Below, in pieces: positions 11,023 through 63,396 of a DNA stretch of 64,000 nucleotides. The DNA is from Candidatus Saccharimonadales bacterium (GTDB lineage: Bacteria > Patescibacteriota > Saccharimonadia > Saccharimonadales > 2-12-FULL-41-12). The DNA lies in the NCBI GenBank assembly GCA_025451045.1, contig JANWLD010000003.1, forward strand, positions 69,690 through 133,689, in the 5' to 3' direction. How positions within the stretch are numbered: the first letter of the stretch is position 1; the number at the start of each line of letters is the position of its first letter. The translations under genes were made by a program, and so were the position numbers. Under the pieces are notes generated by a model. That model did no database searches and was not told the origin of the DNA. It saw nothing but the letters and a program-made list of their open reading frames with translations.

Positions 11023-11097
11023 TTGACTAACTATTGACTAATGTGGTATAATATATAAATAATGTATATAGAGGCTGTATAAGATAGGATTAACCAT

Positions 11098-11436
11098 ATG
11101 CCGGTAAGTGTGTTTGAAACTACGGAAAGTAACAACAGAAGGGAAATCATTGTTACGCCACAGAAGCCGAAAGTATATCGGAACCATTCCAGCCAAAGGG
11201 GCGGCGAGGTCATATTAGTCGCCACTTTCGAAGATGATACGATGGCGTTGATAATGAAAATTTCCCGTATGGCCCTTATGGCCAGCCGCGGTGAAGAGCC
11301 CTCTATGCGACGAATGATGAGGTTCGTTAATAGCATGGTAGTAGTGCGCCAGGGTATTGAAGTAGTAGATTACGAACCGAACCCTGGTAGGACCGAACTC
11401 TTTGAGGTCCAGCATTTATCAACTGCTAATAACTAA
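11098..11436 (+). CDS. Hypothetical protein
   Basis: 112-aa ORF with globular-looking composition. It overlaps a hydrophobic antisense ORF (11031..11336) that looks like a shadow frame. Confidence 0.35.
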   Translation: MPVSVFETTESNNRREIIVTPQKPKVYRNHSSQRGGEVILVATFEDDTMALIMKISRMALMASRGEEPSMRRMMRFVNSMVVVRQGIEVVDYEPNPGRTELFEVQHLSTANN

Positions 11437-11708: not shown

Positions 11709-11811
11709 AATGGCCTGTTTTTTAGCGCTAAAATGCTTATTTTTATATCAAAAAAGATATTTTTACCAAAAAACAATAAAAATTATTTCGATAAAGGTCT
11801 TCGACCTTTTT

Positions 11812-11990
11812 ACCGACCCGCTTTTGGTGTCAAAAGCGGGACAAAACCACCGGGACTAGTTCAATATCTTTATTGTTTCATTGCCCAAGCCAACAACAGC
11901 CTGCGGAACTCGCTATCGCTCAAACAGTCCTCGGCTATTAGTTGTTGTTTAGACATTTACCAATCAGGATATATCACAATGCCCGGACCC
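11812..11990. repeat. X element, copy 1 (179 bp)
   Basis: Identical to 34058-34236 apart from 4 mismatches, in the same orientation. It contains a 9-bp-stem hairpin (CCCGCTTTT-ggtgtc-AAAAGCGGG). It also carries a minus-strand 28-codon sORF (11870-11956, MSKQQLIAEDCLSDSEFRRLLLAWAMKQ). Confidence 0.9.
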
Positions 11991-12019
11991 ATGCCTGAAA
12001 ATACCAAGGTATTTTCTTT

Positions 12020-12244
12020 CCAGCATTTACAAAACCGAGTGAGGGACTTTTAATTTGACCGGGTGGAACGAAAAGCAACCCATTTCCTCCCTAAGAATCA
12101 TGAGATGGGCGACTGATAAGGAGTTTTTTCATTCAGGTCAAATTAAAACAAAGCGGACCTAGAGTTTTGTAACCTGCTGTCAGTTTTTGGATTCCGTTTT
12201 TGCTGACTCAAAAATGGAATGGTTTGGTTCTTGGCCACAAGAAC
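12020..12244. repeat. Y element, copy A (possible structured RNA)
   Basis: The 5' box 12020-12051 and the 58-nt core 12175-12232 match the reverse complement of 27999-28029 and 27836-27893; the core has 1 mismatch. An internal stem AATTTGACC/GGTCAAATT (12052-12060 / 12136-12144) and a terminal hairpin GTTCTT-ggccac-AAGAAC (12227-12244) are also present. Confidence 0.85.
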
Positions 12245-12271
12245 ATATTGGGTTCTTTTTAAAGAATGTCT

Positions 12272-12526
12272 TCAATTTATTGATTCTGGTTTTTCCGGAT
12301 GAAGGGTAACTACTACTTCGTTCGGGCCGCCTTCAGGCGGATCATAAATACCTCGTCTTTCAGGGATAGGAACTATTCGCATAAAGTGATTGCCGGTTCG
12401 CATAAAAGTCCGAGGTTTTTGTGGAGGATATTCAATAGGTACATCCGCGTTTATCGGCCGCTCTTTGCTTTCGCCTTTAGCCTGCCGGGCTAAGCCCATT
12501 AAAGATGATAATCTGCCGTTTGCCAT
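12272..12526 (-). CDS. Hypothetical small protein
   Basis: 84-aa ORF with no motifs. Confidence 0.4.
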   Translation of the reverse strand: MANGRLSSLMGLARQAKGESKERPINADVPIEYPPQKPRTFMRTGNHFMRIVPIPERRGIYDPPEGGPNEVVVTLHPEKPESIN

Positions 12527-14053: not shown

Positions 14054-14203
14054 CAAAAACCCCTTAAAAATGTTATTTAGGCGTGAATTTGGGCTAAAAA
14101 TACTATAAATTCACGTTGTATTGACATTTAGGCGTGAATTTAGCCGCCAAAACGGTGTTTGGAAAATTGGGAAGTAATACCTACAAAAACCCCTTAAAAA
14201 ATG
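14054..14203 (+). promoter_or_regulatory. Repeat-rich control region upstream of and overlapping the hsdM start
   Basis: ATTTAGGCGTGAATTT occurs at 14075-14090 and 14126-14141, with the inverted half-site AAATTCACG at 14107-14115. CAAAAACCCCTTAAAAA(A)TG occurs at 14054-14072 and 14184-14203. TTGACA is at 14121-14126. Confidence 0.5.
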
Positions 14204-15726
14204 CTATGATTACTACTGTATTTCAGGAGTTAATTTTGGATATTCAACATTTAGAACAAAAACTTTGGCAATCTGCCGACAAACTACGAAACAACATGGA
14301 CGCGGCCGAGTATAAACATGTGGTGCTTGGACTTATTTTTCTCAAATACGTTTCAGATGCCTTTGCCGTACAGTACAAAAAAGCCGAAAAAGAGGGTTAC
14401 GACCCAGAAGACCGCGACTTTTACAAAATGGATAACATCTTTTGGGTGCCAAAAGAAGCCCGTTGGGATAATATTCGCGACAATGCGAAACAGCCCGAAA
14501 TAGGCAAACTACTTGATAATGCAATGGATGCCATAGAGCGTGAAAATACATCGCTCAAAGGTGTTTTACCGAAGAATTACGGTCGGGAAGCACTGGACAA
14601 AAGGCGCCTAGGGGAGCTAATAGACCTCTTCAGTACTGTTTCGCTTAACGAGGACGGGCACAAGAGCAAAGACCTTTTAGGCAGAATCTATGAATACTTT
14701 ATGGGCATGTTTGCCGATGCAGAGGGCAAGCGCGGCGGGCAGTTCTACACTCCGCGCAGTATAGTTCGCCTGCTTGTAAACATGGTTGAGCCTCATAAAG
14801 GCGCTAGAATTTATGACCCTTGCTGTGGTAGTGGTGGAATGTTTGTTCAGAGCGAAGAATTCGTAGAGGAACATTCTGGCAATATCGGCGATATTGCCAT
14901 TTACGGCCAGGAAAGCAACCAAACCACCTGGCGACTTATTAAGATGAACATGGCCATCCGCGGTATCGATGCAGATATCAAATACGGCGATACTTTGCAC
15001 AATGACCAGTTAAAAGATCTAAAAGCAGATGTTGTTTTAGCTAATCCGCCGTTTAATATAAGTGATTGGGGCGGTGAATTACTGCAGAGCGATGTTCGCT
15101 GGAAGTATGGCCCTCCGCCGAAGGGTAATGCTAACTTTGCTTGGGTTCAGCATTTTATCCATCATTTAAACCCAACCGGTACAGCCGGGTTTGTCTTAGC
15201 AAATGGTTCTATGAGTTCGCAAAGTTCCGGCGAAGGAGAAATCCGCAAAAACATTATCAAGGCAGATTTGGTAGATGCAATAGTTGCTTTACCAAGCCAG
15301 CTATTCTTTAACACTGGCATCCCAGCTTGTCTTTGGTTTGTTTCAAGAGATCGCAAAAATCGCAGCGGCAAAACTTTGTTTATCGACGCTCGCAATATGG
15401 GCAACATGATAAACCGCCGCAACCGCGAACTTACGGATGAAGATATAGTCAAAGTTGCAGAAATCTATAATGAATTTAAAAAATCAGGAACAGTAGAAGA
15501 TGTCCCCGGCTTTGCTAAAGTTTCAACTATAGATGAAATAAAAGAACATGACTATGTCCTTACGCCTGGTCGGTATGTAGGCGCAGAAGAAATAGAAGAA
15601 GACGACGAAACTTTCGAAGAAAAAATGCAAAAACTCACAACAGAACTAAAAGGACAATTTGCAGAATCCGACAAGTTAGAAAAGCAAATTAAAGAAAATT
15701 TAAAGAAGATCGGTTATGAATTATGA
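14134..15726 (+). CDS. hsdM: Type I restriction-modification system, N6-adenine DNA methyltransferase subunit
   Basis: HsdM N-terminal signature ([32 protein letters not shown]), SAM motif [10 protein letters not shown], and catalytic motif IV LANPPFN. The GTG at 14134 lies inside a repeat, so ATG 14206 (MITTVFQE) is the more likely start. Confidence 0.95.
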
Positions 15727-17141
15727 GTAAAGATGAAGTGACTATATTTTATTCATGGCAGTCAGATGAACCTAAGACCCGAAGCTACATTGAAAAATAT
15801 CTAAAAAATGCTATTGACGGTGTAGCAAGCAAGCCCGATTTAGAAATATCACCTAGAATGGATAAGGACACGCAAGATGAAGTGGGCGCAGTTCATATTG
15901 CTGAAACTATAAAAAAGAAAATAGATAAATGTGGAATCTTCGTCGCTGATGTTAGTTTGGTTGATAAAGGGGCTTCAGGGCGTTTATTAGTAAATCAAAA
16001 TGTACTTTTTGAACTAGGTTATACAGTTGGCAAGAAATCAGAATCATCTGTAATTTTAGTTGCCAATACCGATTTAGGAGATTTAAAAAATCTTCCATTT
16101 GATATTGCATATAATCGTATAATAGGGTTTTCTTTAAAAAACGATCCAAAGGGAGAAAAGTTTCAAAAATCAATTGAGTTTGCCATCAATGCCCACTTGG
16201 AGACCATATCAGTTCAGGAAAAACAGGATGAGTCAGAAGTCCTCAAGGAAAATCTTCTTTCGGCGATTGATAACAATAAACCCACCCGAACCTTATCAGA
16301 AAAATATTTTTCACAGTTATATAAAAAAATTAATTCAAAAGCACCAAGTCGTTATAAATCTAGAGATAATATTAAAGAATATAGAGCTCAAATTTATAAC
16401 AACTACGAAACCACTAAACCTTTAACCGAAGAATTATTTGAAGTGTTATCTGTGGCAACGGAATATAAAAAAATTGACGTGATATTAACAGCCTATAAAC
16501 AGATTGAGATCATATCACAATATTACGATATTGTACCCGAAGATAATGGCCAAATGTACGATATTTCAAGAGATTTTTATGAATTAGTGGTGTATGAGAT
16601 TTTTTCTATAATTTTAGGCTGCGTAGCAAAAGAAAAGTTGTGGGAGATATTACCAGAGATAAATAGTATTAAGCTTCGAAGACCGAGTGGTTATGACAAG
16701 CCACGTACTCTAGAACGTCTTTATGGCTATCCTGGAGCTGTACTTGAATATTATAAAGAGCTAAAAGATGTTAATTATGTGATTCCTATGACACCTATGG
16801 TAGAAGAAAGGTTTAAAGATAGAGAAGACATTCTGCAAGCTTATCTTAATGGATGTTTGCTCATGTATTTTATGGTTAATAACCATCCTTGGTTAGTGGG
16901 CTTACTCCTTGGAAGCTCTTGGCAACGATATATTCCGGACTTTATAGGAGAATTCCGAAAAAAAAGTTTTATAAATATTCTTCAAAAAATACCCAACGTA
17001 GCTTCTATAGATGAATACCGCACATACCTTTGGAGTCAAATAAATAGAGATATGGGGCACTGGTCATATTCGCAAGATAACTTACTTCCTGTATTCATGA
17101 TGGAAGGCATTAACCAAAAAGAAGATATAGGAAAAGAGTGA
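15723..17141 (+). CDS. TIR-like (nucleotide-binding/NADase-fold) N-terminal domain protein with a roughly 300-aa helical C-terminal domain of unknown function
   Basis: The N-terminal 150 aa show a beta-alpha pattern: [30 protein letters not shown] (Glu codon at 16011-16013) and SVILVAN. This resembles the bacterial TIR-like family consensus (..NVIFELGYF..). The start overlaps the hsdM stop (ATGA). Confidence 0.55.
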
Positions 17142-17168
17142 GCTGGATTGTTTATTTGGAATTAAATC

Positions 17169-18245
17169 ATGAGTAAACCAACTCTAAGTATTTATACCTT
17201 CAAGTTCGTTGTACGCGCCAATAGCTGGGACGATGTAGTATCAATATTAAAAGATGAGCTTGGTATTACGAAAAAACGAAACTCTAGTGACCGAAAAATA
17301 AGCGGCCTCTATCTTGTATCCTGTATTATTGATGATAAAGATATCACGAAAAATTTTTACAAAAAAATTGCTAAGTCCAATAATATAGTCATTCATTCAG
17401 ACGGTAAGTCTACTTCATTGTACCCAAAAATTTTAAAAGAAACTCAGATAGTCGAAGAAAAATTACGCTGGCTCCTGCTCCACGTAAGCGATGCAATAGA
17501 AGATTACGTAAAATTACTAGGGTATGAAAAAAACGATATTGTAGAAAATAGCAGCCTTGATCCACTTACTTCTAAATTAAGCTTTGAGACCATACTTGAT
17601 TTACTAGAAATAGATCAGTCATGGGCGAGAGATGGTGTAGATGATGGAAAGATGCGTCATCTTATAAAAAATAGTAGTGATTTTGCAACCTTTAAATCTA
17701 AATATATAGAGAAAACAACACCGAAAACAGTCTGGGGATCTATAAGCGACCTAGTGCTAGAACGACCTATAAAGTGGGAAACTATTTATAAAAAGCTTCA
17801 TAGTATACGAATACTTCGTAATAAGTGCGCGCATTTTCATACTGTAACAAGTGATGATTTTAGTCAGGCAAAGCATTTACGCACACAAATTATGAAAAAC
17901 CTAACGAAGAAAAGTTCATATACCTCTACGGATATTAAGACACTAACGGAACTTAGTAAGCAAATGGTAGAAACCGTAAGAACGCTACAGACGAGTTATT
18001 ACAAAGATATTGCTAAGTTAACCAATGCCTCTTTCTCTGCGCAGCAAGCATTAGCAAATCTTTCGGGGGGCGCGTATCAATCTCCATCAATAGCAGAGCT
18101 GGCAAAATCTGTAACACGAATGGTCAACAAAATGTATGCACCGGTGTTTAGTAGTGACTATTATAAACTTGCATCAAGAATGCCAGTATCGGGTCTAAAA
18201 GATAACGACAGTTCTCCTACTAAAAAGACAGGGGAAAAGCAATGA
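17169..18245 (+). CDS. HEPN-domain protein (Swt1-like / Abi-like putative RNase)
   Basis: Rx4H motif ILRNKCAH (17817-17834), preceded by the helical pattern EEKLRWLLLHV typical of Swt1-type HEPN domains. Confidence 0.6.
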   Translation: MSKPTLSIYTFKFVVRANSWDDVVSILKDELGITKKRNSSDRKISGLYLVSCIIDDKDITKNFYKKIAKSNNIVIHSDGKSTSLYPKILKETQIVEEKLRWLLLHVSDAIEDYVKLLGYEKNDIVENSSLDPLTSKLSFETILDLLEIDQSWARDGVDDGKMRHLIKNSSDFATFKSKYIEKTTPKTVWGSISDLVLERPIKWETIYKKLHSIRILRNKCAHFHTVTSDDFSQAKHLRTQIMKNLTKKSSYTSTDIKTLTELSKQMVETVRTLQTSYYKDIAKLTNASFSAQQALANLSGGAYQSPSIAELAKSVTRMVNKMYAPVFSSDYYKLASRMPVSGLKDNDSSPTKKTGEKQ

Positions 18246-19411
18246 AAAAAACGGTTTTGTTTGAGGATTTGGTAGCTCAAAAAATAGATAATCGAGGCAA
18301 GACGCCTCCTATTATAGATAGCGGATATCCGCTCCTAGAAGTTAATGCTATTTCAAAGAATAGTATTTATCCTGATTCCACAAAGGCGAGAAAATTCGTT
18401 GCTCAAGAAACCTGGGATAACTGGTTTCGCCAACACCTTGAAGAAGGCGACATTTTATTTACTACAGTTGGTACTATCGCCGAGTCAGCAATTGTACCAA
18501 AAAATCCCGGCTATGCTGTTGCGCAAAATATCCTTGGGTTTAGATTTGATAAAAAAGAGATCGAGCCATTTTATGCGCTATATCTAATGCGCAGTAAGTG
18601 GTTTATAGATCAAATTGCCGGGAGAACGGTGGAGACCGTTCAAAAAAGCATAAAATGGGCAGATATGCGGGGAATAAAAATAACCCTGCCGCCCATTAGC
18701 GAACAACAAAAAATAACTGAAATTGCCCGAGGAATTGATGAAATGATTGAGCTGAATCGGCGGATGAATGAGACTTTAGAAAAAATCGGCCAAACCCTTT
18801 TTAAACATTATTTTATAAACAACCCCGAAGCGGAGAAGTGGGAAAGAGGCATTTTGAGCGATATTATCGCGCTTAATCCACGCGAATCAATTCCAAAAAA
18901 CTTTCCGGTGAGATACCTTGAAATGAAGAATGTGCCGGAAGTTGGCATGAGTGTTAAGGCAACTGAGATTCGTAACTTTACGGCCGGCATGAAATACAGG
19001 AATGGGGACACTTTGCTTGCACGAATTACGCCGTGTCTTGAAAATGGAAAAACTGCCTTTGTAGATTTTCTCGATCAGGATGAGGCCGGTTTCGGCTCTA
19101 CAGAATATATTGTCATGAGACCAAAACAGGTTGAGCTGACGGAATATATTTATTTCCTTGCTAGGAGTAGTGTTTTTCGAGCATTTGCTATACAAAGCAT
19201 GGTTGGTACATCAGGCAGGCAGCGCGTGCAAAACGATTCCGTCGCGGCATATGAAGTAGCTATCCCTGATGTAGATTTACTTGCTAAGTTTCATCAAAAA
19301 ATGCAGAAGGCTTTTGCGCAAATCCGAAACAACGCTCGACAAATCCAAACCCTAACCATCCTCCGCGACACCCTCCTACCACACCTAATCTCCGGAAAGA
19401 TAAAAGTATGA
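18242..19411 (+). CDS. hsdS: Type I restriction-modification system, specificity subunit
   Basis: Two variable TRD halves are separated by the conserved helix LPPISEQQKITEIARGIDEMIELNRRMNETLEKIGQTLF. The C-terminal conserved helix is QTLTILRDTLLPHLISGKIKV. The start overlaps the previous stop (ATGA). Confidence 0.9.
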   Translation: MKKTVLFEDLVAQKIDNRGKTPPIIDSGYPLLEVNAISKNSIYPDSTKARKFVAQETWDNWFRQHLEEGDILFTTVGTIAESAIVPKNPGYAVAQNILGFRFDKKEIEPFYALYLMRSKWFIDQIAGRTVETVQKSIKWADMRGIKITLPPISEQQKITEIARGIDEMIELNRRMNETLEKIGQTLFKHYFINNPEAEKWERGILSDIIALNPRESIPKNFPVRYLEMKNVPEVGMSVKATEIRNFTAGMKYRNGDTLLARITPCLENGKTAFVDFLDQDEAGFGSTEYIVMRPKQVELTEYIYFLARSSVFRAFAIQSMVGTSGRQRVQNDSVAAYEVAIPDVDLLAKFHQKMQKAFAQIRNNARQIQTLTILRDTLLPHLISGKIKV

Positions 19412-20541
19412 GCTTGAGCCAAGGGTGGATCACCCCCAAGTATGATCCGATAGAACAAATACCAAACCAACTAAACGCAGGCTTAGATAGTGTTGATATT
19501 TGCAGCCAGTTCACAGCTAGAGCTGTTAAAAATGGTTTTGCTAATTCTGGTCTTAAAGCAATTCAGGATGGGCCAAGAGCAAAAATATTTGTATCAGCCC
19601 TACACATACCTGATATAAAAGAGGGTACCTCGCATCATTTCAAATTAGACATTGTAAAGTTTACAAGACCGAATAAAGACACTCCGTGGAAAAGGATAAA
19701 TTTTCAAACCATAGACAAAAAGGAGAGTATTGACCAGCTCATGACTTTCTTAAGAGAGCAGGCCTCTCTAGTTGGCGTGAAGATTGAAGACAATAAGCAA
19801 TATCAAGCAATTGCTGTAAATAATAAGCTAGGCGTGACCATTGAAAAAGTTCAAGCTTTTGTTGCGGACGCTCTATCTGGAGATAAGGCGGTGGTTGAAA
19901 AAGAGATATTAAAAACTCTTAAACAACAAAGGAGCTCAAAAGAACAAATAAAGCAGTACGAGAATGATCTCGCTGAGTTCAAAAGACTTATAGCGGAACC
20001 GGGGACTACAGAGACAGATATGCAAAATTTTCTTTCAACTCGCTTCTGGTTCTTTGGCCTAGATTATATCCAGAGCCATCTTCGATCAAAACCAAAATTT
20101 AGCACTGGCTTGGGGTCTGAGTATGACTTTCTTCTAGAAGGCTTCAATCAAGTTTATGACATTGCAGAGCTCAAGGGGCCTAATGCAAAGTTAATCGATG
20201 AAGTTAAAGCTTCAGATCGAAAAGGCGCATTCGATCCAAGGGTTGATTATAAATATTCTAGCGATTTTGGACGAGCTCTTCATCAAGTAATTTCTTATTT
20301 GGATGAGTTTGAGCAAAATTTTGGAAAAATAGAGGAGAGCCAGCCATCTATAAAACGATTCAACTATCCCTCTGCTGTTATTGTTATATCAAAAAGAAGT
20401 TTGTTTCCTGAGGCCGGTAAAGATAGTAAAAAATATTTACATTTGCTCAATCGACAGTTTGCAAATATTGACATTCTTACATATGACGATTTGGCAGACA
20501 GAGCAGAAAATATAATAAAATTCATGAAAGAAGAGTCCTGA
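19408..20541 (+). CDS. DUF4263 / Shedu (SduA)-like PD-(D/E)xK nuclease
   Basis: The C-terminal half reads TETDMQNFLSTRFWFFGLDY...GSEYDFLL...YDIAELKGP...ALHQVISYLDEF. This matches the DUF4263 pattern (..fL..nPWl.g..y...D.....ElK...Q..Y). The start overlaps the hsdS stop (ATGA). Confidence 0.6.
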   Translation: MSLSQGWITPKYDPIEQIPNQLNAGLDSVDICSQFTARAVKNGFANSGLKAIQDGPRAKIFVSALHIPDIKEGTSHHFKLDIVKFTRPNKDTPWKRINFQTIDKKESIDQLMTFLREQASLVGVKIEDNKQYQAIAVNNKLGVTIEKVQAFVADALSGDKAVVEKEILKTLKQQRSSKEQIKQYENDLAEFKRLIAEPGTTETDMQNFLSTRFWFFGLDYIQSHLRSKPKFSTGLGSEYDFLLEGFNQVYDIAELKGPNAKLIDEVKASDRKGAFDPRVDYKYSSDFGRALHQVISYLDEFEQNFGKIEESQPSIKRFNYPSAVIVISKRSLFPEAGKDSKKYLHLLNRQFANIDILTYDDLADRAENIIKFMKEES

Positions 20542-20616
20542 CATGGACAAAGCGCAATTACTGACAAGACGACGAGCCTCACTTCTGTTTTTCCTAATGT
20601 CCGTAAAGCTAAAAGT

Positions 20617-21963
20617 ATGATAAATATATCGGAAGAATTATTTATATCAACCATAGATTCTGGATTTTTTAGGCATATAAGAAAAAATAGTGTTTTACCT
20701 CAAGAGATAGATCAGACTCGTGAGGAATATCTAAAACAACTCTATAAGAAAGTTGTTACGGGCGAGTACTTCGTGGCAGGTCCGCGTGCTTTTAAAATAG
20801 AAAGTAAATCTCAAAAAGTTGCTCGGATTATACCTATGTTAACGGTTGCTGATTATTGCGTGTATTACTTTTGTGTCAAGCAGGTAGAGGATGAACTAGC
20901 CATTGATAGAGTAGCAAACACCTACGGAGCATTTAGCCTTGGAGGTATAATTAGGGATTCTGAAGAAGATCAACTAGACGCCATAAGCCTTGAATTACCA
21001 TCAACTCCATCAAGAGCTTACAATATGCTGGGTTGGATTGAATCATGGAAAGACTTTCAGAAAAAAGTTTGGCTTACTGCAAGTTCTGCGAATACTTCTG
21101 AATTTCTGTTTTCTGATATTGCTAACTTTTATGACACCATTGACCTAGACAAGCTAGAGGCAAAAATTAGACATGCTGTTCCAAAGGATAAGCTTCCAGT
21201 AATACACTTATTGTTTTCATTTTTAAAAAACTGGAATAGAAAAATCTATGGATACGCCCATCAGACAAAGGGATTGCCCCAGGATGAGGTGGGCGATTGT
21301 TCGCGCTTATTGGCTAATTTTTACCTACAGAATTATGATGAGAAAATTAGTAAATATTGTGATGATATTAATGTGACTTATTTTAGATATGCTGATGATC
21401 AAATTTTCATGTCTAACTCTAAAAAAGACAATCTGAAGGCTCTATACAAGGCATCTGTGCTACTCCACAATGAAGGATTAAATTTTGGTGTTTCCAAAGT
21501 AAAAATTCAGGATGAAAGTGAATTCTCCATATATTGGGCATTTGAAATATTTGATCTTCTAGGAGATTCAAATGACAAAGCCAGGGTTACTCAAGGCACA
21601 GAAAAGTATATAGCGTGGTCTAGTGAATACGGAAAAGATAAGTTTAGATGGTGGTCGGTGTTACTAAGGATTATTAGTTGTGATATATCGAGCTTATCAC
21701 CAGAACTAAGAGAAGGTATATTTACGGATCTGCTAAAAGAGGAATTTTTATTAGATCAATCATCATATGTTTTTAAGAGAATCCATAACGCTTTAGAGGA
21801 ATCTAAACGCAAAGACTTTATCGAAGTTCTATACAGTCTATCAAAAGAGAGCAGGTTCAATGCTTATCTGTACGAACTTCTTGACTTACAAAGAAGAATT
21901 GAAGTCTTCACAAAGGAACAGATTACTAAGATAGAAGAAAGAATAGAGGAATTGTCTTTATGA
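20617..21963 (+). CDS. Reverse transcriptase, defence-associated Abi/UG-like
   Basis: RT motifs are present: 1/2 KVARIIPMLTVADYCVYY, A FSDIANFYDTID, B GLPQDEVGDCSRLLANFYL, C FRYADDQIF (YADD = 21388-21399) and D/E LNFGVSKVKI. The helical C-terminal 150 aa has no endonuclease, maturase or retron VTG features. Confidence 0.85.
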   Translation: MINISEELFISTIDSGFFRHIRKNSVLPQEIDQTREEYLKQLYKKVVTGEYFVAGPRAFKIESKSQKVARIIPMLTVADYCVYYFCVKQVEDELAIDRVANTYGAFSLGGIIRDSEEDQLDAISLELPSTPSRAYNMLGWIESWKDFQKKVWLTASSANTSEFLFSDIANFYDTIDLDKLEAKIRHAVPKDKLPVIHLLFSFLKNWNRKIYGYAHQTKGLPQDEVGDCSRLLANFYLQNYDEKISKYCDDINVTYFRYADDQIFMSNSKKDNLKALYKASVLLHNEGLNFGVSKVKIQDESEFSIYWAFEIFDLLGDSNDKARVTQGTEKYIAWSSEYGKDKFRWWSVLLRIISCDISSLSPELREGIFTDLLKEEFLLDQSSYVFKRIHNALEESKRKDFIEVLYSLSKESRFNAYLYELLDLQRRIEVFTKEQITKIEERIEELSL

Positions 21964-22688
21964 ATTATAGATTAGTAGCAAATCAAATAGGTGATTTATT
22001 GAAATATGCTACCACCTACAACGAAATAGAACGTGCAGCGAAGTCTATATTTACCTTTCAAAAAGAAAAATTCCCTAATGATTCAATAACATCTGTTAGG
22101 GCACAGGCTTTTCATGACTGGGTTTTAACTCTTGCAAAACAATCAATGACCAATGAAGATCGGAATGATTTGTTGGTTCAATTTGTTTCTATCGTTACGC
22201 CGGAAGATCTAGAAAACGATGTAGATAAAATCTTAAAGAAAGCAAAAATTGACCTTAAAGTAGGATCTGTTATCTCGGATGATTTTATGAGTAGAAACTT
22301 TCATGAAGAAATCCATAAACACTGTCGAAAACTATTCATTCAAGAAAATTATTTTCATGCAGTATTTGAAGCGGCAAAAGTCTATAACAAACTTGTCCAA
22401 AAAAAGTCCCAAAACCAAAGAGACGGACAAGGCTTAATGTTAGATGTTTTTTCTTTAAAGGGAGTACTGAAACTTAATACTGGACGCACTCAAACAGAAA
22501 AAAATGTACAGGAAAGCGTTAAATTTTTATCTGCCGGATTAATGCAAGCGATGCGTAATCCAACCGCTCATGAACCAGCGCTTGATTGGCCTATATCAAA
22601 AGAGGACTGTTTAGACATGCTCAGTTTTATATCTTATTTGTTTAGACAATTAGACAAAGCAATTTATTTTAAAAGTACTGCTAATTAA
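21960..22688 (+). CDS. HEPN-domain protein of the TIGR02391 (Hypoth_Ymh) type
   Basis: C-terminal GLMQAMRNPTAHEP (Rx4H at 22554-22571), preceded by DGQGLMLDVFS and followed by EDCLDMLSFISYLFRQLD. The start overlaps the RT stop (ATGA). Confidence 0.75.
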   Translation: MNYRLVANQIGDLLKYATTYNEIERAAKSIFTFQKEKFPNDSITSVRAQAFHDWVLTLAKQSMTNEDRNDLLVQFVSIVTPEDLENDVDKILKKAKIDLKVGSVISDDFMSRNFHEEIHKHCRKLFIQENYFHAVFEAAKVYNKLVQKKSQNQRDGQGLMLDVFSLKGVLKLNTGRTQTEKNVQESVKFLSAGLMQAMRNPTAHEPALDWPISKEDCLDMLSFISYLFRQLDKAIYFKSTAN

Positions 22689-22963
22689 AAACGTTTGCGC
22701 CTTGCTACATTAATGAATTGTTCAAAACTTGTCATCTCCCTACGAGTCATAGGAATTTTGTCGAATACTCCGGTAGGAACTTTATCACTACCTTCAATTA
22801 TTATTCCTTTTTCTACTTCTTTTGAGGAGTATTTATTTTCAAGTTGATCAATATATTCCTGATACTCTTGGTTATTTGATGCGAAAGATTTACTTTTTTC
22901 TTCTTTGCCATCACTTAATAAAACTAATAGGACCACCATTACATGCTTAATTGTAGCGGTCAT
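22685..22963 (-). CDS. Hypothetical small protein (antisense to the operon); doubtful
   Basis: A 92-aa ORF exactly fills the spacer between the HEPN gene and hsdR. It has a hydrophobic N-terminus (VMVVLLVLL) and no motif. Confidence 0.3.
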   Translation of the reverse strand: MTATIKHVMVVLLVLLSDGKEEKSKSFASNNQEYQEYIDQLENKYSSKEVEKGIIIEGSDKVPTGVFDKIPMTRREMTSFEQFINVARRKRF

Positions 22964-25900
22964 TGTATACTAGTCAACAAATGACCGAAGATAAAGTAGA
23001 GCAAGAAGCGCTGAAAATACTAGCTAATTTAGGCTGGGAAGTTTTGAACGGACCGGAAATTGGCCCGGATGGCTCCGGCGAGCGACAATATCACGAAGTG
23101 TTTTTAGATAAAAAATTGACTGCTGCTGTACAAAAACTTAATCCGCAAATACCAAAAGAAGGCTTAGATAAAGTAAGAACTTTATTGAGCAGGAGTACCG
23201 CACCGACGCTACTAACTGATAATCATACCTTTCATAACCTTTTAGTTAATGGCCTGGATTATGAATACCGAAATAAAAACGGTGAAATAAGAACGGATAA
23301 AGTCTGGCTGTTTGACTTTGAAAACCTTGAAAATAACGAATTTGTGGCAGTAAACCAACTAACTGTTTTGCAAGGCGAGCATAACCGCCGGCCAGACATA
23401 GTGCTGTTTGTAAACGGCTTGCCGCTGGTAGTGATAGAGCTAAAAAATGCTGGGGATGCTAAGGCAGATGTGCGAGCGGCTTTTCGGCAAATACAGACAT
23501 ATAAAGACCAGATAAACGCGCTCTTTAGATTTAATGAACTGTGCGTGATAAGCGACGGGCTGGATGCACGGATGGGTACTATAAGCTCTGACTTTGAACG
23601 ATTTATGACATGGAAAACCATAGACGGCGAGAAGGAAGTAGGAAATGTCCCAATGCTGGAAGTACTACTACGCGGCGCGTGCGATAAGTCCAGACTGCTT
23701 GATATAGTGCGGAACTTCATAGTGTTTGAGCGGTCTGATGTGAATGAACAGAACTATATAAAAAAGGTTGCGGCATACCACCAGTATTGGGCAGTTAAAA
23801 AAGCAGTAAACAGTACGGTAGGGGCGACTAAGCCAGATTCTGACCACCGAGCAGGTGTAGTCTGGCATACGCAAGGTTCTGGCAAGTCACTATCTATGGC
23901 GTTTTATGCAGGATTATTGACTGTATCGCCAGAGCTAAAGAACCCCACAATATTAGTTGTAACGGACAGAAATGATCTGGATGGACAGCTTTTTGGTACG
24001 TTTGCGGCTTGTCATGATTTACTGCGACAAGAACCTGTGCAGGCGCACACCCGAAAAGAACTGAGAGAACTGCTGAATAGAGAATCTGGCGGAGTGATCT
24101 TTACCACTATACAGAAATTCTCACCAGGTGAAGATGAAGATACGTTGCCAGTTTTGAGCCCAAGAAACAACATAATAGTCATAGCTGATGAAGCACACCG
24201 TAGCCAATACGGGCTAAAAGCTCGCGTGCGAGAAAGCGATGCACAGCTGGTGTATGGATATGCAAAATATATGCGTGATGCATTGCCGGGAGCTAGCTAT
24301 ATAGGCTTTACCGGAACGCCAATAGAGCGTGAAGATAAATCTACCCCAGCGGTTTTTGGCGAATACATAGACATATACGACATACAGCAGGCCGTAGAAG
24401 ACCAAGCAACCGTGCCTATATATTATGAAAGCCGCCTGATAGACCTGGGCATGGATGAAACAACCAAAAAGTGGCTGGATAGTGAAGTAGAAAACCTGCT
24501 TGAGGGCGAAGAGCTATCACGCCAGGATAAGTTAAAGGCTGAATGGACACAAAAAGAAGCAATAGTGGGCAACACGGAGAGACTAAAGCTAATTGCCAAA
24601 GACATAGTTAAGCATTTTGAGGAACGTCAAACAGCGATAGAGGGCAAGGCCATGATTGTGACTATGAGCCGAAGGATTGCAGCTGCTTTGTATGATGAGA
24701 TTATTAAGCTTAGGCCAGAGTGGCACAATGAAGATGACGACAAAGGTCTAATAAAAGTCGTTATGACTGGCTCGGCGTCTGATGAGCAGGCGCTACAAAA
24801 ACATTTAAGAAGCAAAGATAAACAAAAGGCCCTGGCGGCGAGGATGAAAGATGTTGATTCTGAGCTAAAGCTAGTGATTGTGTGCGACATGTGGTTAACA
24901 GGATTTGACGTGCCGAATATGCATACAATGTATTTGGATAAACCATTAAAAGGGCATAACTTGATGCAAGCGATAGCAAGGGTAAACAGAGTTTATCCTG
25001 GGAAAATTGGCGGCTTGGTCGTGGACTATTTGGGAGTTGCAGCTGCACTACGTGAAGCAATGGCAGATTATACCGAAAGTGGCGGGGAAGGAACGCCTAC
25101 TTTGGACCAAGACAAAGCCGTGAAGATCATGAAGCAGAAATATGAAATCGTTCGAGATATGTTCCATGGGTTTGATTACAAAAAATATTTTGATGCTGAA
25201 ACCGGGGAGCAACTGCAGATTATTCTGGATGCCGAAGAACATATAACCGCCATGGATAATGGCCCGAAGAGATTGAAGCAACACGTTGTAGAACTGGGTA
25301 AAGCATTTGGTCTAGCTATGCCACGACCAGAGGCTCTGGAGCTGCGCGAGGAAGTAGCATTATTCCAGGCAGTCAATGCACGCCTAGAGAAAATAGATGG
25401 CCCTAGGGGTGGACCAACTGATGAAGATTACCGGATGGCAATAAAGCAAATTGTAGATAAAGCTATAGCCCCCGTGGGTGTAGTAGATATCTTTACTGCT
25501 GCAGGCCTAGAAAAGCCGAATTTGTCTATATTGTCTGATGAATTCTTGGCAGAAATGCGCAATATGGAGCGTAAAAATTTGGCGGCGATTGTTCTGCAGA
25601 AACTCTTAGACGATGAGATAAAAGTTAGGTTCAAACGAAATGCGGTAAAAACTCAGCAATTTTCAGAAATGCTGGAAGAGGCATTGGCTCGATATAAAAA
25701 CGGAACCATTGAGGCTGCGCAGGTAGTAGAAGAACTTATAAAGATTGCAAGAAATGTCCGAGAAGAAGTAAAAGAAAACGAAGAAAGCGGGCTTAGCGAA
25801 GCGGAGTTAGCTTTTTATGATGCTTTGGTGGCTCATGGGACAGCCAGAGAAGTAATGGGAGATGAAAAGCTTAGAGAACTTTCTAGGTTGTTGGTGCAAA

Positions 25901-26076
25901 GGGTCCGAAATAATGTATCCATAGACTGGACAATGCGGGAATCGGCACAAGCGAGACTGCGTGTAGAAGTAAAGAAGCTCCTACGAGAGTTTGGCTACCC
26001 GCCTGATAATCAAGCAATTGCTACAAAGTTAGTACTTGAACAAGCAAGCCTGTTTGCTGAAGAAGAGATTAAATAA
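22963..26076 (+). CDS. hsdR: Type I restriction enzyme, endonuclease/translocase subunit
   Basis: N-terminal nuclease region (PDIVLFVNGLPLVVIELK), helicase motif I TQGSGKS, motif II VIADEAHRSQ, and motif VI QAIARVNR. The track start is TTG 22963; ATG 22981 (MTEDKVEQEALKIL) is more likely. Confidence 0.95.
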   Translation: MYTSQQMTEDKVEQEALKILANLGWEVLNGPEIGPDGSGERQYHEVFLDKKLTAAVQKLNPQIPKEGLDKVRTLLSRSTAPTLLTDNHTFHNLLVNGLDYEYRNKNGEIRTDKVWLFDFENLENNEFVAVNQLTVLQGEHNRRPDIVLFVNGLPLVVIELKNAGDAKADVRAAFRQIQTYKDQINALFRFNELCVISDGLDARMGTISSDFERFMTWKTIDGEKEVGNVPMLEVLLRGACDKSRLLDIVRNFIVFERSDVNEQNYIKKVAAYHQYWAVKKAVNSTVGATKPDSDHRAGVVWHTQGSGKSLSMAFYAGLLTVSPELKNPTILVVTDRNDLDGQLFGTFAACHDLLRQEPVQAHTRKELRELLNRESGGVIFTTIQKFSPGEDEDTLPVLSPRNNIIVIADEAHRSQYGLKARVRESDAQLVYGYAKYMRDALPGASYIGFTGTPIEREDKSTPAVFGEYIDIYDIQQAVEDQATVPIYYESRLIDLGMDETTKKWLDSEVENLLEGEELSRQDKLKAEWTQKEAIVGNTERLKLIAKDIVKHFEERQTAIEGKAMIVTMSRRIAAALYDEIIKLRPEWHNEDDDKGLIKVVMTGSASDEQALQKHLRSKDKQKALAARMKDVDSELKLVIVCDMWLTGFDVPNMHTMYLDKPLKGHNLMQAIARVNRVYPGKIGGLVVDYLGVAAALREAMADYTESGGEGTPTLDQDKAVKIMKQKYEIVRDMFHGFDYKKYFDAETGEQLQIILDAEEHITAMDNGPKRLKQHVVELGKAFGLAMPRPEALELREEVALFQAVNARLEKIDGPRGGPTDEDYRMAIKQIVDKAIAPVGVVDIFTAAGLEKPNLSILSDEFLAEMRNMERKNLAAIVLQKLLDDEIKVRFKRNAVKTQQFSEMLEEALARYKNGTIEAAQVVEELIKIARNVREEVKENEESGLSEAELAFYDALVAHGTAREVMGDEKLRELSRLLVQRVRNNVSIDWTMRESAQARLRVEVKKLLREFGYPPDNQAIATKLVLEQASLFAEEEIK

Positions 26077-27684: not shown

Positions 27685-27787
27685 AAAAAAAGAATCCTTT
27701 ATTTCGTTAGTTATTTAGTCGGTTGATCAGTAATGAACAGCGAGTAAAAAACTACGAATGACCCGGATTCATTAGGTTGATGTAAAC

Positions 27788-27816
27788 ATTTTAACAGAAA
27801 AAAATGCTTATGTCAA
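27788..27816 (-). promoter_or_regulatory. Sigma70-type promoter candidate for the DEAD-box helicase gene
   Basis: On the minus strand: TTGACA (27816-27811), a 17-bp spacer, then TAAAAT (27793-27788). It lies about 100 nt upstream of the ATG at 27684. Confidence 0.55.
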
Positions 27817-27823
27817 TGAGGAT

Positions 27824-28029
27824 GTTCTTCTGACGAAGAACCAAGCCATTCCATTTTTGAGTCAGCAAAAACGGAATCCAAAAACTGACAGCAAGTTGAA
27901 AAAAACATGATGCTCGCTTTGTTGCGGTCTTGTCTGGCCTGCGGGACTCCTTCCAGTCGGCCATGAAGGCTGGTCCTCGGCCTGTTCCGACAAGACCGAA
28001 AGTCGCTCACTCAGTTTTTCAAATGCTGG
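27824..28029. repeat. Y element, copy C (inverted relative to copy A)
   Basis: This is the reverse complement of copy A. It has the terminal hairpin GTTCTTC-tgac-GAAGAAC (27824-27841) and the 58-nt core (27836-27893, 1 mismatch). The internal stem CGGTCTTGTC/GACAAGACCG (27925-27934 / 27989-27998) sits at the same relative position as the stem in copy A but has a different sequence. The 5' box is at 27999-28029. Confidence 0.85.
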
Positions 28030-28261
28030 GAATAAATCAGAATGCCTCGCAATACCCAACCCCAAAAAAACACAAGAGCCTGATTGCGAGCCAATCGGTC
28101 TGGCAAATGCTGAATCAAAGGATATTTGCTCAGGCTCAAGCAAAGCCGGAATAGCAAAAAGTTATCTTTCTAAATTAGAACGCTGGAAAAGCTGATTGCG
28201 CGTATTGTTCGTTAGAACATCTATTCGACAGATATTGTAAAAAATGTTAAAATGTTGGTAA

Positions 28262-33988: not shown

Positions 33989-34057
33989 TCGGACATTTCA
34001 TTTTCGGGGCGGTTCTTTCAAAGAACCAAACCTTTCGGCAGGTACTTCGTACCTACC

Positions 34058-34236
34058 ACCGACCCGCTTTTGGTGTCAAAAGCGGGACAAAACCACCGGG
34101 ACTAGTTCAATATCTTTATTGTTTCATTGCCCAAGCCAACAACAGCCTGCGGAACTCCCCATCGCTCAAACAGTCCTCGGCTATTAGTTGTTGTTTAGAC
34201 ATTCACCAATCAGGATATCTCACAATGCCCGGACCC
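34058..34236. repeat. X element, copy 2 (179 bp)
   Basis: See copy 1. There are four mismatches (two in one sORF codon, AGC to GGG) and the sORF is retained (MSKQQLIAEDCLSDGEFRRLLLAWAMKQ). Confidence 0.9.
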
Positions 34237-34366
34237 TTATTTTTAGCAAATGCTGGATAAGATAAAAAAGGGTTGTTTATAAAAACGCGATTTCATTTGT
34301 GCTAGAGCTTGCGGTCGTGTTGTTGGCCCATGCTAAGATTGAAAGGTATTTAAGTGGGGTAAAACG

Positions 34367-36140: not shown

Positions 36141-36196
36141 ATCTGGCTTACTGTTGACAAAAGTGGTATAATATAGATTGAAACAGGAGTTTTTCA

Positions 36197-61069: not shown

Positions 61070-61160
61070 GCCCCGTAGTAGACTTTTGAGTTGGCTTCCT
61101 TTCAGGAAGCTAGCTTCCCGGCCACTTGGCCGAGAAGGTCTCAAAAGCTCACTACGGGGC
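61070..61160. repeat. Z element, copy 1 (about 91 nt, three-way-junction palindrome)
   Basis: 21-nt arms GCCCCGTAGTAGACTTTTGAG / CTCAAAAGCTCACTACGGGGC enclose two hairpins (GCTTCC-tttca-GGAAGC and a GGCC-containing hairpin). Pairing is best on the minus strand. Confidence 0.8.
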
Positions 61161-63302: not shown

Positions 63303-63396
63303 GCCAGGTAGTGAGCTTTTGAGAATAACTCTGCCAAACGGCAGGGTTATTTAGTTCGCTTGAAAGAGCGAACTGCTCAAAAGTCTACTACTTGGC
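63303..63396. repeat. Z element, copy 2 (about 94 nt; opposite orientation to copy 1)
   Basis: The arms GCCAGGTAGTGAGCTTTTGAG / CTCAAAAGTCTACTACTTGGC are the reverse-complement versions of the copy 1 arms. The inner hairpins are AATAACTCTGCC-aaac-GGCAGGGTTATT and AGTTCGCT-tgaaag-AGCGAACT. The right arm overlaps the last codons of pth. Confidence 0.8.

Follow-up and report, generated by a model that had tools for sequence, protein, structure and literature searches.

The Y element and the adjacent X repeat belong to one undescribed family of intergenic structured elements of approximately 200-250 nt, which is found in a few Saccharimonadales (CPR) genomes. With slightly better than even confidence, the family is read here as a new multi-copy family of structured small RNAs, transcribed from the strand on which a 5' box precedes a conserved core. 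The window analysed is the whole stretch of 64,000 nt (64 kb). Its gene content included a prfB-like RF, ftsEX, pyrG, a dcw cluster, topA, dprA and pth, and homologues of its helicase are named Candidatus Saccharimonadales. The window holds four family members, of which one has the box-before-core order on the plus strand (Y-A) and three on the minus strand (Y-C, X1 and X2).

An earlier note on this DNA had described Y as an element present twice, and both copies were found where it had placed them, with checked spans of 12020-12246 (+) for Y-A and 27822-28029 (-) for Y-C. The pattern of the 5' box (CCAGCATTTNNAAAACNGAGTGAGNGACTTT, 27 specified bases) had exactly two matches in the window, at 12020-12050 (+) and 27999-28029 (-), with 0.00 expected from shuffles. 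The 58-nt core, which had been said to carry one mismatch, started at 12175 in Y-A and did differ at a single position between Y-A and Y-C. A repeat search returned the 3' parts of the two copies as an 82-nt inverted pair (12165-12246 and 27822-27903) with 91% complementarity. The stems quoted for the copies (AATTTGACC/GGTCAAATT and CGGTCTTGTC/GACAAGACCG, each followed by ACAAAGCG), the core hairpin (ATTCCGTTTTT/AAAAATGGAAT) and the terminal hairpins were all present and were used in the minimum free energy (MFE) folds, which reached -67.8 kcal/mol for Y-A (z = -3.1) and -75.5 kcal/mol for Y-C (z = -3.6). The claim that the interior between box and core cannot be aligned was too narrow, since the block ATGG(G/C)CGACTG..AAGGAGT is common to both copies; the apical part of Y-C is also nearly identical to that of a copy in another genome. 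The Y copies and their parts were located as follows.

12020..12246, plus strand: Y-A, full element, plus-strand family member
12020-12050, plus strand: 5' box of Y-A
12021-12025 (CAGCA) and 12175-12179 (TGCTG), plus strand: closing stem of the P1 rod of Y-A
12180-12190, plus strand: U-rich linker of Y-A, TCAGTTTTTGG
12191-12220, plus strand: hairpin H2 of Y-A
12227-12244, plus strand: hairpin H3 of Y-A
12250..12268, plus strand: extra 3' hairpin H4 of Y-A, GGGTTCTTTTTAAAGAAT
11997..12016, no strand assigned: H0, a perfect palindrome of 20 bp (GAAAATACCAAGGTATTTTC), flanked by the 5' ends of X1 (-) and Y-A (+)
27822..28029, minus strand: Y-C, with the box at 27999-28029, then P1, the linker, H2 at 27848-27877 and H3 at 27824-27841

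H0 forms a small hairpin just 5' of the Y-A box. H4 is a second GGTTCTT/AAGAAC module and lies at the stop codon (12272-12274) of a weakly coding minus-strand ORF of 84 aa.

The count of two was right for Y and an undercount for the family. A 192-nt repeat, X, lies beside Y-A and again at 34 kb (11799-11990 = 34045-34236), and it is a paralogue of Y on the opposite, minus strand, on which it showed the same architecture as Y (fold z = -3.6). In addition, a box-like relic was found directly 5' of Y-C.

11791..11995, minus strand: X1, with P1 closed by CCGGG/CCCGG, head-to-head with Y-A
within X1, minus strand: apical motif, GCCGAGGAC..GUUCCGCAGGC
within X1, minus strand: linker, UGGUUUUGU
11817-11840, minus strand: H2 of X1, CCCGCUUUUG/CAAAAGCGGG
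within X1, minus strand: H3, AAAGGUC/GACCUUU
34005..34241, minus strand: X2, second X copy
34012-34032: additional hairpin of X2, GGUUCUUU/AAAGAACC
28030..28125, minus strand: degenerate box-like relic, directly 5' of Y-C

X1 and X2 are near-identical from 3 nt 5' of P1 to 6 nt 3' of H2 and diverge beyond these points, and H3 of X2 differs from that of X1 with compensation (GUAGGUAC/GUACCUGC). The relic sequence CAGCATTTGCCAGACCGA (28095-28112) resembles the box of a short member from a related genome (L029:9700-9895, below), and the relic as a whole folded no better than its shuffles (z = +0.9).

Y-A and Y-C share one fold. A rod of about 150 nt (P1) leads through a U-rich linker to the 12-bp hairpin H2, after which come one or two GUUCUU/AAGAAC hairpins. 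In both copies the rod is closed by pairing of the box CAGCA with UGCUG at the start of the core. The closing stem is followed by P1a of 8-9 bp (UUACAAAAC/GUUUUGUAA in Y-A and UUGAAAAA/UUUUUCAA in Y-C), in which two base pairs differ on both sides. The internal-loop region is then kept between the copies; its 5' side reads YGAGUGAGSGAC and its 3' side ACAAAGCG..., and for the family as a whole it is YGAGNGAGCG/AGCGA. CUUU/AAAG and a 10-bp stem, P1b, come next; eight of the ten P1b pairs changed between Y-A and Y-C with pairing kept in all, and across the family P1b is about 10 bp long and free in sequence. The apical domain of both copies holds the common block (AUGG(G/C)CGACUG..AAGGAGU in the RNA), and the family apical motif is GCCGAGGAC...GUCCCGCAGGC. 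After the rod, the single-stranded UCAGUUUUUGG leads to the 12-bp H2, with a G.U pair that is present in all Y copies, and then to the GUUCUU/AAGAAC hairpin H3. The general form of H2 is N5-UUUUUG-loop-CAAAAA-N5; after it come one to three small hairpins (H3, H4). A check for a pseudoknot between the linker and the H2 loop (GUCAG/CUGAC, UCGGC/GCCGA) found 74% of cells able to pair, which equals one of the slid controls.

The search of relatives proposed in the earlier note produced three further members in two related Saccharimonadales MAGs. The loci searched encode helicases with 79-89% protein identity to the helicase of the window, and all were reached via that gene, which makes any association of members with the helicase in the relatives subject to ascertainment bias. 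A full Y homologue (L029-Y) was found in L029 (GCA_034680565.1) at L029:15644-15852 (+), where it follows a Fic/Doc gene by 24 nt and is convergent to a gene for a response regulator. With a covariance model (R1) of the 100-nt 3' module, a fourth Y was recovered in L036 (GCA_964464875.1), convergent with the helicase gene and abutting its stop codon (L036-Y). Weaker R1 matches were the minus strand of the X repeat and the following short member.

L029:9700-9895, plus strand: mini-member, 5' of the L029 helicase promoter

In this mini-member the box reads CCAGCATTTGCCAAACCGA, and P1 is short and is followed by a U-rich linker and by GCAUGCUUUUUGU/ACAAAAAGCAUGU as H2; the apical domain is missing. 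After one iteration of the model (R2), all seven members scored 56-105 bits. The distribution is patchy: no family member was found in L028, L030-L032, L034, L037, L038 and L040 with R2, or in L033, L035 and L039 with R1. The family therefore stands at seven examples from three genomes, which amount to about five independent sequences.

Two motifs were specific to the family in the DNA searched. CGAGGAC-N10-40-CCGCAG occurred in the window and 40 loci only in X1, X2, Y-C and L029-Y (0.03 expected), and the GTTCTT..AAGAAC hairpin was confined to family members in the window and the loci searched. Colinearity of Y-A with L036-Y extends from H0 to H4; the H0 hairpin is kept in L036 in an altered sequence (AAACAC..GTGTTT), and the two are by their sequence one copy inherited vertically. 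L036-Y folded no better than its shuffles, because of which some copies may be decaying.

Matches to known sequences and RNA classes were not obtained. The core 18-mer had 23 matches in 185,579 species genomes and a 20-mer had four in the JGI metagenomes, all at the level of chance; four patterns searched against viral contigs and blastn against phages and plasmids gave none. Rfam 15 at gathering thresholds gave no match in the whole window, and at E ≤ 10 the searches with Y-A/X1, Y-C and L029-Y returned only chance-level hits (snoRNA, SmY, miRNA) of 10-21 bits against thresholds of 36-80. A retron ncRNA was rejected: the sole reverse transcriptase of the window is a UG13b DRT located 6-8 kb from either Y copy, none lies beside X2, L029-Y or L036-Y, and the favoured strand is opposite to the retron-like order.

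The proposal that structure is kept through sequence turnover, as in a functional RNA or ssDNA, was supported by L029-Y, in which stems are exchanged with pairing retained. Its closing stem changed from CAGCA/UGCUG to CCGGC/GCCGG, P1a to UUGCCAGAC/GUC(C)UGGCAA, the lower H2 stem from AUUCC/GGAAU to UCCGC/GCGGG, and all ten pairs of P1b were replaced (AGUUCGCAUC/GAUGCGAACU). The unpaired motifs UGAG.GAGCG, CGAGGACCAGCC, GGCCGAC, GUCCCGCAG and AGCGA.CAUCAUG were retained, as was the UUUUUG/CAAAAA core of H2. In the alignment of the three full-length Y copies (MAFFT, RNAalifold structure), 91.5% of cells were paired and 23 of 75 pairs showed compensatory double changes; controls with the partner slid by 1-3 columns gave 2-8, and none of 500 shuffles reached the observed count. 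The same compensatory pattern was carried by the 3' module of all seven members, aligned by fitting to the covariance model, with 95.1% of cells paired and double changes in 13 of 19 pairs (slid controls 0-5; shuffles 0/500). These figures are counts and not probabilities, as the sequences are few and related, although the contrast with the slid controls is still large.

The energies also differed between strands. The RNAalifold consensus was -69.0 kcal/mol on the assigned strand and -55.2 kcal/mol on the reverse. The MFE was lower on the assigned strand in six of six members, by 1.1-14.8 kcal/mol, with the largest differences in X1, X2 and L029-Y and a modest bias in Y-A, Y-C and L036-Y. Fold z-scores among members were -3.1, -3.6, -3.6 and -5.9. 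In the single-sequence MFE folds the two strands did not differ in their G.U counts, and the strand signal was seen only in the energies and the consensus fold. Overall, the asymmetry appears to favour the assigned strand.

In the window, Y-A and Y-C are inverted and bracket the helicase gene together with a low-GC defence island, and Y-C ends 8 nt from the -35 hexamer of the helicase promoter.

14134-26076: defence island, low GC
27788..27816, minus strand: DEAD-box helicase promoter, sigma-70-type TTGACA-17-TAAAAT, which bounds Y-C and lies outside the family

The island includes type I R-M genes (hsdM 14134, hsdS 18242, hsdR 22963), interleaved with Shedu SduA (19408), a HEPN/Ymh (PD-Lambda-3_B-like) protein, a reverse transcriptase at 20617-21963 of the UG13b DRT class (3e-125) and two further proteins, one of which gave only a weak TIR-domain Pfam match (E 2e-5, with no PADLOC match) and the other a marginal AbiD match (E 1e-3). 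The gene order of the window is kept in L028, where a different island (ubiquitin-like/E2/ThiF, HNH, SLFN-like helicase, DUF4145, DUF3800) occupies the same place 3' of the helicase, and the intergenic site of X2 holds an unrelated sequence there. L036-Y abuts the helicase stop codon, whereas approximately 14 kb of island lies between Y-A and the helicase in the window.

Y-C as part of a conserved helicase leader was rejected. Nine relatives keep the promoter and the 5' UTR and their DNA upstream is unrelated, and the family is absent 5' of the helicase in L028 and L030-L037. The helicase promoter (TTGACATAAGCATTTTTTTCTGTTAAAAT) and its 5' UTR of about 100 nt (ATCAACC.AATGAATCCGGGTC...TTTACTCGCTGTTCATTACTGATCAACCGA...AAGGATTCTTTTTTTATG) are themselves near-invariant in the window (27685-27816, -) and in L028-L037, and this 5' UTR may be a conserved, possibly autoregulatory, leader. 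Just 5' of the promoter, L030, L031 and L032 carry the same sequence, which by eye resembles a tRNA gene and varies in orientation by locus; no tRNA was found in the 64 kb of the window. The region upstream of the helicase seems to be a rearrangement hotspot.

The ends of the members lie close to neighbouring genes. At Y-A, X2, L029-Y and L036-Y, 3-40 nt separate the end of the element from a convergent gene's stop codon, and Y-C and X1 end directly 5' of the strong promoter of the next gene (the helicase and a 91-aa gene, respectively). No protein gene was shared among the neighbours of the member loci. A convincing sigma-70 promoter was not found 5' of any copy; extended -10-like TGN motifs are readable 5' of X1, X2 and Y-C by sequence inspection only, and a promoter before the Y of L036 would have hardly any space beside H0 and a hairpin that resembles a terminator. 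A seed-target search with the linker gave 9 matches against 6.9 expected and no trans target, and no matches to the variable P1b stems were found.

Other repeated sequences were observed in the window. The 9-mer CCAGCATTT occurs at eight sites (11409, 12020, 23445, 25667, 28021, 30790, 34248 and 63714) where about one is expected; one of these lies 11 nt 5' of X2 on the strand of X2 and is followed by the extended -10-like sequence TGCTAAAAAT. A strong promoter-like block (..TTGAC(T/A)A(A/T)(T/A)GTGGTATAATATA) is duplicated at 11024-11055 and 36144-36175, which indicates that the plus-strand ORF 11098-11436 is a real gene and the minus-strand ORF 11031-11336 is not, and the codon scores agree (0.145 and 0.001, respectively). 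Finally, a small inverted repeat pair at 61117-61160 and 63303-63346, one copy between topA and dprA and the other next to pth, keeps the block UCUCAAAAGCUCACUAC, while its hairpin varies with compensation (GGCCacuuGGCC vs UGCCguuuGGCA), and these repeats may be a second structured intergenic family.

Stems that are free in sequence with pairing kept, invariant unpaired motifs and the energy bias towards one strand together point to selection on a folded single strand. An RNA is favoured since G.U pairs and the strand bias fit it, since the units resemble small genes that end in hairpins and since one copy is vertical yet structurally constrained. On the other side, the 3' hairpins are without canonical U tails, and a strand-specific function of ssDNA would give the same strand bias. 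On the most economical model, each copy would be a small stable RNA, and its transcription would start at a weak or extended -10 promoter of its own or arrive by read-through. A genome-encoded partner, either a protein or another RNA, would make contact at the invariant loops and the 3' module, the P1 rod would provide stability, and the 3' hairpins would end the transcript and also block convergent or upstream transcription into neighbouring genes. Within a genome, discrete units would be acquired, lost and homogenised, which would explain why Y-A and Y-C have a near-identical core and why X1 is near-identical to X2.

It is unlikely, though worth serious weight, that Y/X are instead non-autonomous mobile DNA (MITE, REPIN, PATE or attC-like) with ssDNA hairpins recognised by a transposase or recombinase encoded elsewhere, the RNA structure being incidental. 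The elements are small and non-coding, with four copies in 64 kb, near-identical X1 and X2 with sharp unit boundaries, modular 3' hairpins and presence or absence at orthologous intergenic sites in related genomes; copies lie in rearranged regions adjoining the defence island, and both strands fold well. attC sites and the ends of IS200/IS605 likewise typically have conserved bulges and stems that covary. However, MITE terminal inverted repeats were absent from the unit ends (GGGTCCGGGCATTG... and ...CAAAAGCGGGTCGGT in X, CCAGCATTT... and ...CAAGAACAT in Y), the complementary P1 arms being internal, and no direct repeat indicating a target-site duplication was found within ±3 nt of the similarity boundaries of X1, X2, Y-A and Y-C. 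No transposase, integrase or Y1/HUH gene was found in the 64 kb of the window or in the 20-kb loci, the neighbourhoods of the L029 and L036 copies included, and a clean empty site was not found. The diverged X and Y keep the whole fold and the unpaired motifs, which argues for long-term selection and not for recent selfish spread, and the G.U pairs and the strand energy asymmetry suit RNA better.

A role as cis-acting punctuation, that is a terminator, insulator or mRNA-end stabiliser that serves only the neighbouring genes and does nothing as a free RNA, is decidedly improbable as the whole explanation. It would account for the 3' hairpins that abut convergent stop codons or precede strong promoters, for the U tract after P1 and for the terminator scan, which flagged H2 of Y-A as terminator-like; in addition, H3 of X1 reads on the plus strand as a hairpin and TTTTT behind a plus-strand gene, and SPRITE and ERIC are precedents (PMC3184786). 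A terminator, however, needs about 30 nt, which leaves unexplained a 150-nt rod with motifs kept across paralogues and genomes, the orthologous genes in relatives manage without the element, and canonical U tails are absent.

It is very improbable that Y-A and Y-C are the inverted repeats of an invertible or transposable segment of 15.6 kb (helicase and island), with their similarity due to recombination. The inverted copies, cores inward, do bracket 12.2-27.8 kb with the type I R-M/Shedu/DRT island, and the single mismatch in 58 nt gives the 3' domain a homogenised look. Against this, a core helicase gene lies inside the segment, no recombinase is present, single members occur elsewhere (X2, L029-Y) and the covariation across genomes is left unexplained. 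The window is also colinear with L028 from ExoVII through the helicase and the island position to a 108-aa gene, with no inversion. An inversion between the Y copies had been hinted at by a 418-aa gene near the L028 helicase, and was rejected on this colinearity and because the protein is not homologous.

Finally, it is barely credible that the elements are what remains of a protein-coding gene or of a type I toxin mRNA. Y-C and L029-Y do share an open frame through the core (..QFLDSVFADSKMEWLGS.. / ..GFLLRVFAEPKMRELGS..) from the conserved CAUCAUG, but this frame has no start codon in Y-A, has stops in L036-Y and is not conserved between A/L036 and C/L029, with a frameshift by a 2-nt indel in A/L036, and no reading frame is free of stops in all copies. 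ORFs overlapping the elements had negative codon-usage scores (neighbouring real genes being positive) and no Pfam matches, and the substitutions are stem-compensatory and not third-position, in agreement with the view in the earlier note that Y is not a decaying gene fragment.

The reading as structured small RNAs can be carried further, as a long shot, to a new class of Saccharibacteria complex-folded ncRNA with a dedicated partner, which would multiply as a transcript-sized unit and mark the edges of a variable defence-island hotspot by the helicase. Multiplication as a transcript-sized unit is proposed from the identity of X1 and X2, which runs from just before P1 to just after H2, and the marking of island edges from the contrast between L036-Y at the helicase stop codon and the island in between in the window. 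If true, the family would be an RNA-level player in CPR genome plasticity or defence and not an ordinary sRNA or repeat. Apart from the universal non-coding RNAs, hardly any are known from CPR/Patescibacteria, and in such tiny genomes a conserved, structured and non-coding share of about 1 kb in every 64 kb is unlikely to lie idle. Invariant loops with heavily covarying stems, in an element of ~220 nt, are a signature of the kind by which new ribonucleoproteins, ribozymes or mobile-element RNAs have come to light. The family is now defined by fold, motifs, strand and its seven examples, which is enough for a full covariance model, and its position at the borders of a defence-island hotspot makes a role in island turnover testable.

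Several known systems resemble Y/X in part. Sibling sRNA families exist in bacteria, and 6S and Y RNA are protein-binding RNAs with rod-like helices. Y/X are likewise small and non-coding, carry 3' hairpins of their own, occur as several paralogues per genome and have a rod whose conserved internal loops could bind a protein, and differ in giving no Rfam match to 6S, SRP, Y RNA, tmRNA or RNase P. 6S RNA was also rejected on structure, as the internal-loop region of Y/X is partly paired with covariation (pairs 31:159 and 35:154) with no open bubble, and a 75-nt 3' extension follows the rod. Integron attC sites and IS200-IS605 ends are structure-specific ssDNA recombination sites with conserved unpaired bases and strand specificity; attC sites are 57-141 nt long, with R'' RYYYAAC and R' GTTRRRY boxes and an adjacent integron integrase. 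The hairpins of Y/X also vary in sequence and keep structure and unpaired bases with a strand bias. Unlike attC sites, they are longer (200-250 nt), the P1a sequences of three copies (ACAAAAC, GAAAAAC, GCCAGAC) do not consistently fit R'' RYYYAAC or the R''/R' consensus, and no IntI, TnpA or TnpB is nearby, and membership in attC was rejected.

The nearest counterparts are the transcribed repeats, with which Y/X share dispersed intergenic copies and an RNA-level hairpin kept by compensatory changes, as in bcr1, ERIC and BOX. bcr1 of the Bacillus cereus group (~155 bp) is dispersed, patchy between close relatives, transcribed and flanked by 5-bp direct repeats, and shows compensatory changes (PMC3184786). 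Y/X are likewise dispersed and patchy among relatives and are without the 5-bp direct repeats, with a larger asymmetric fold of rod and 3' hairpin module, invariant loops and no sequence similarity to bcr1. ERIC, BOX and SPRITE are multi-copy and fold into long hairpins when transcribed, SPRITE being located at convergent 3' ends and BOX being modular; ERIC has TIRs, target duplications and a flanking TA, and mobilisation by IS has been proposed for BOX (PMC3184786). Y/X members are modular as in BOX (P1, H2 and a variable number of GUUCUU hairpins) and tend to lie at convergent genes' 3' ends as in SPRITE. The mobility signatures of ERIC and BOX were not found in Y/X, in which the conservation of unpaired motifs across deeply diverged paralogues is stronger than such repeats would lead one to expect. 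Overall, sharing no sequence with bcr1, ERIC, BOX or SPRITE and belonging to none of them, Y/X are a new family which in kind is closest to the transcribed structured repeats.
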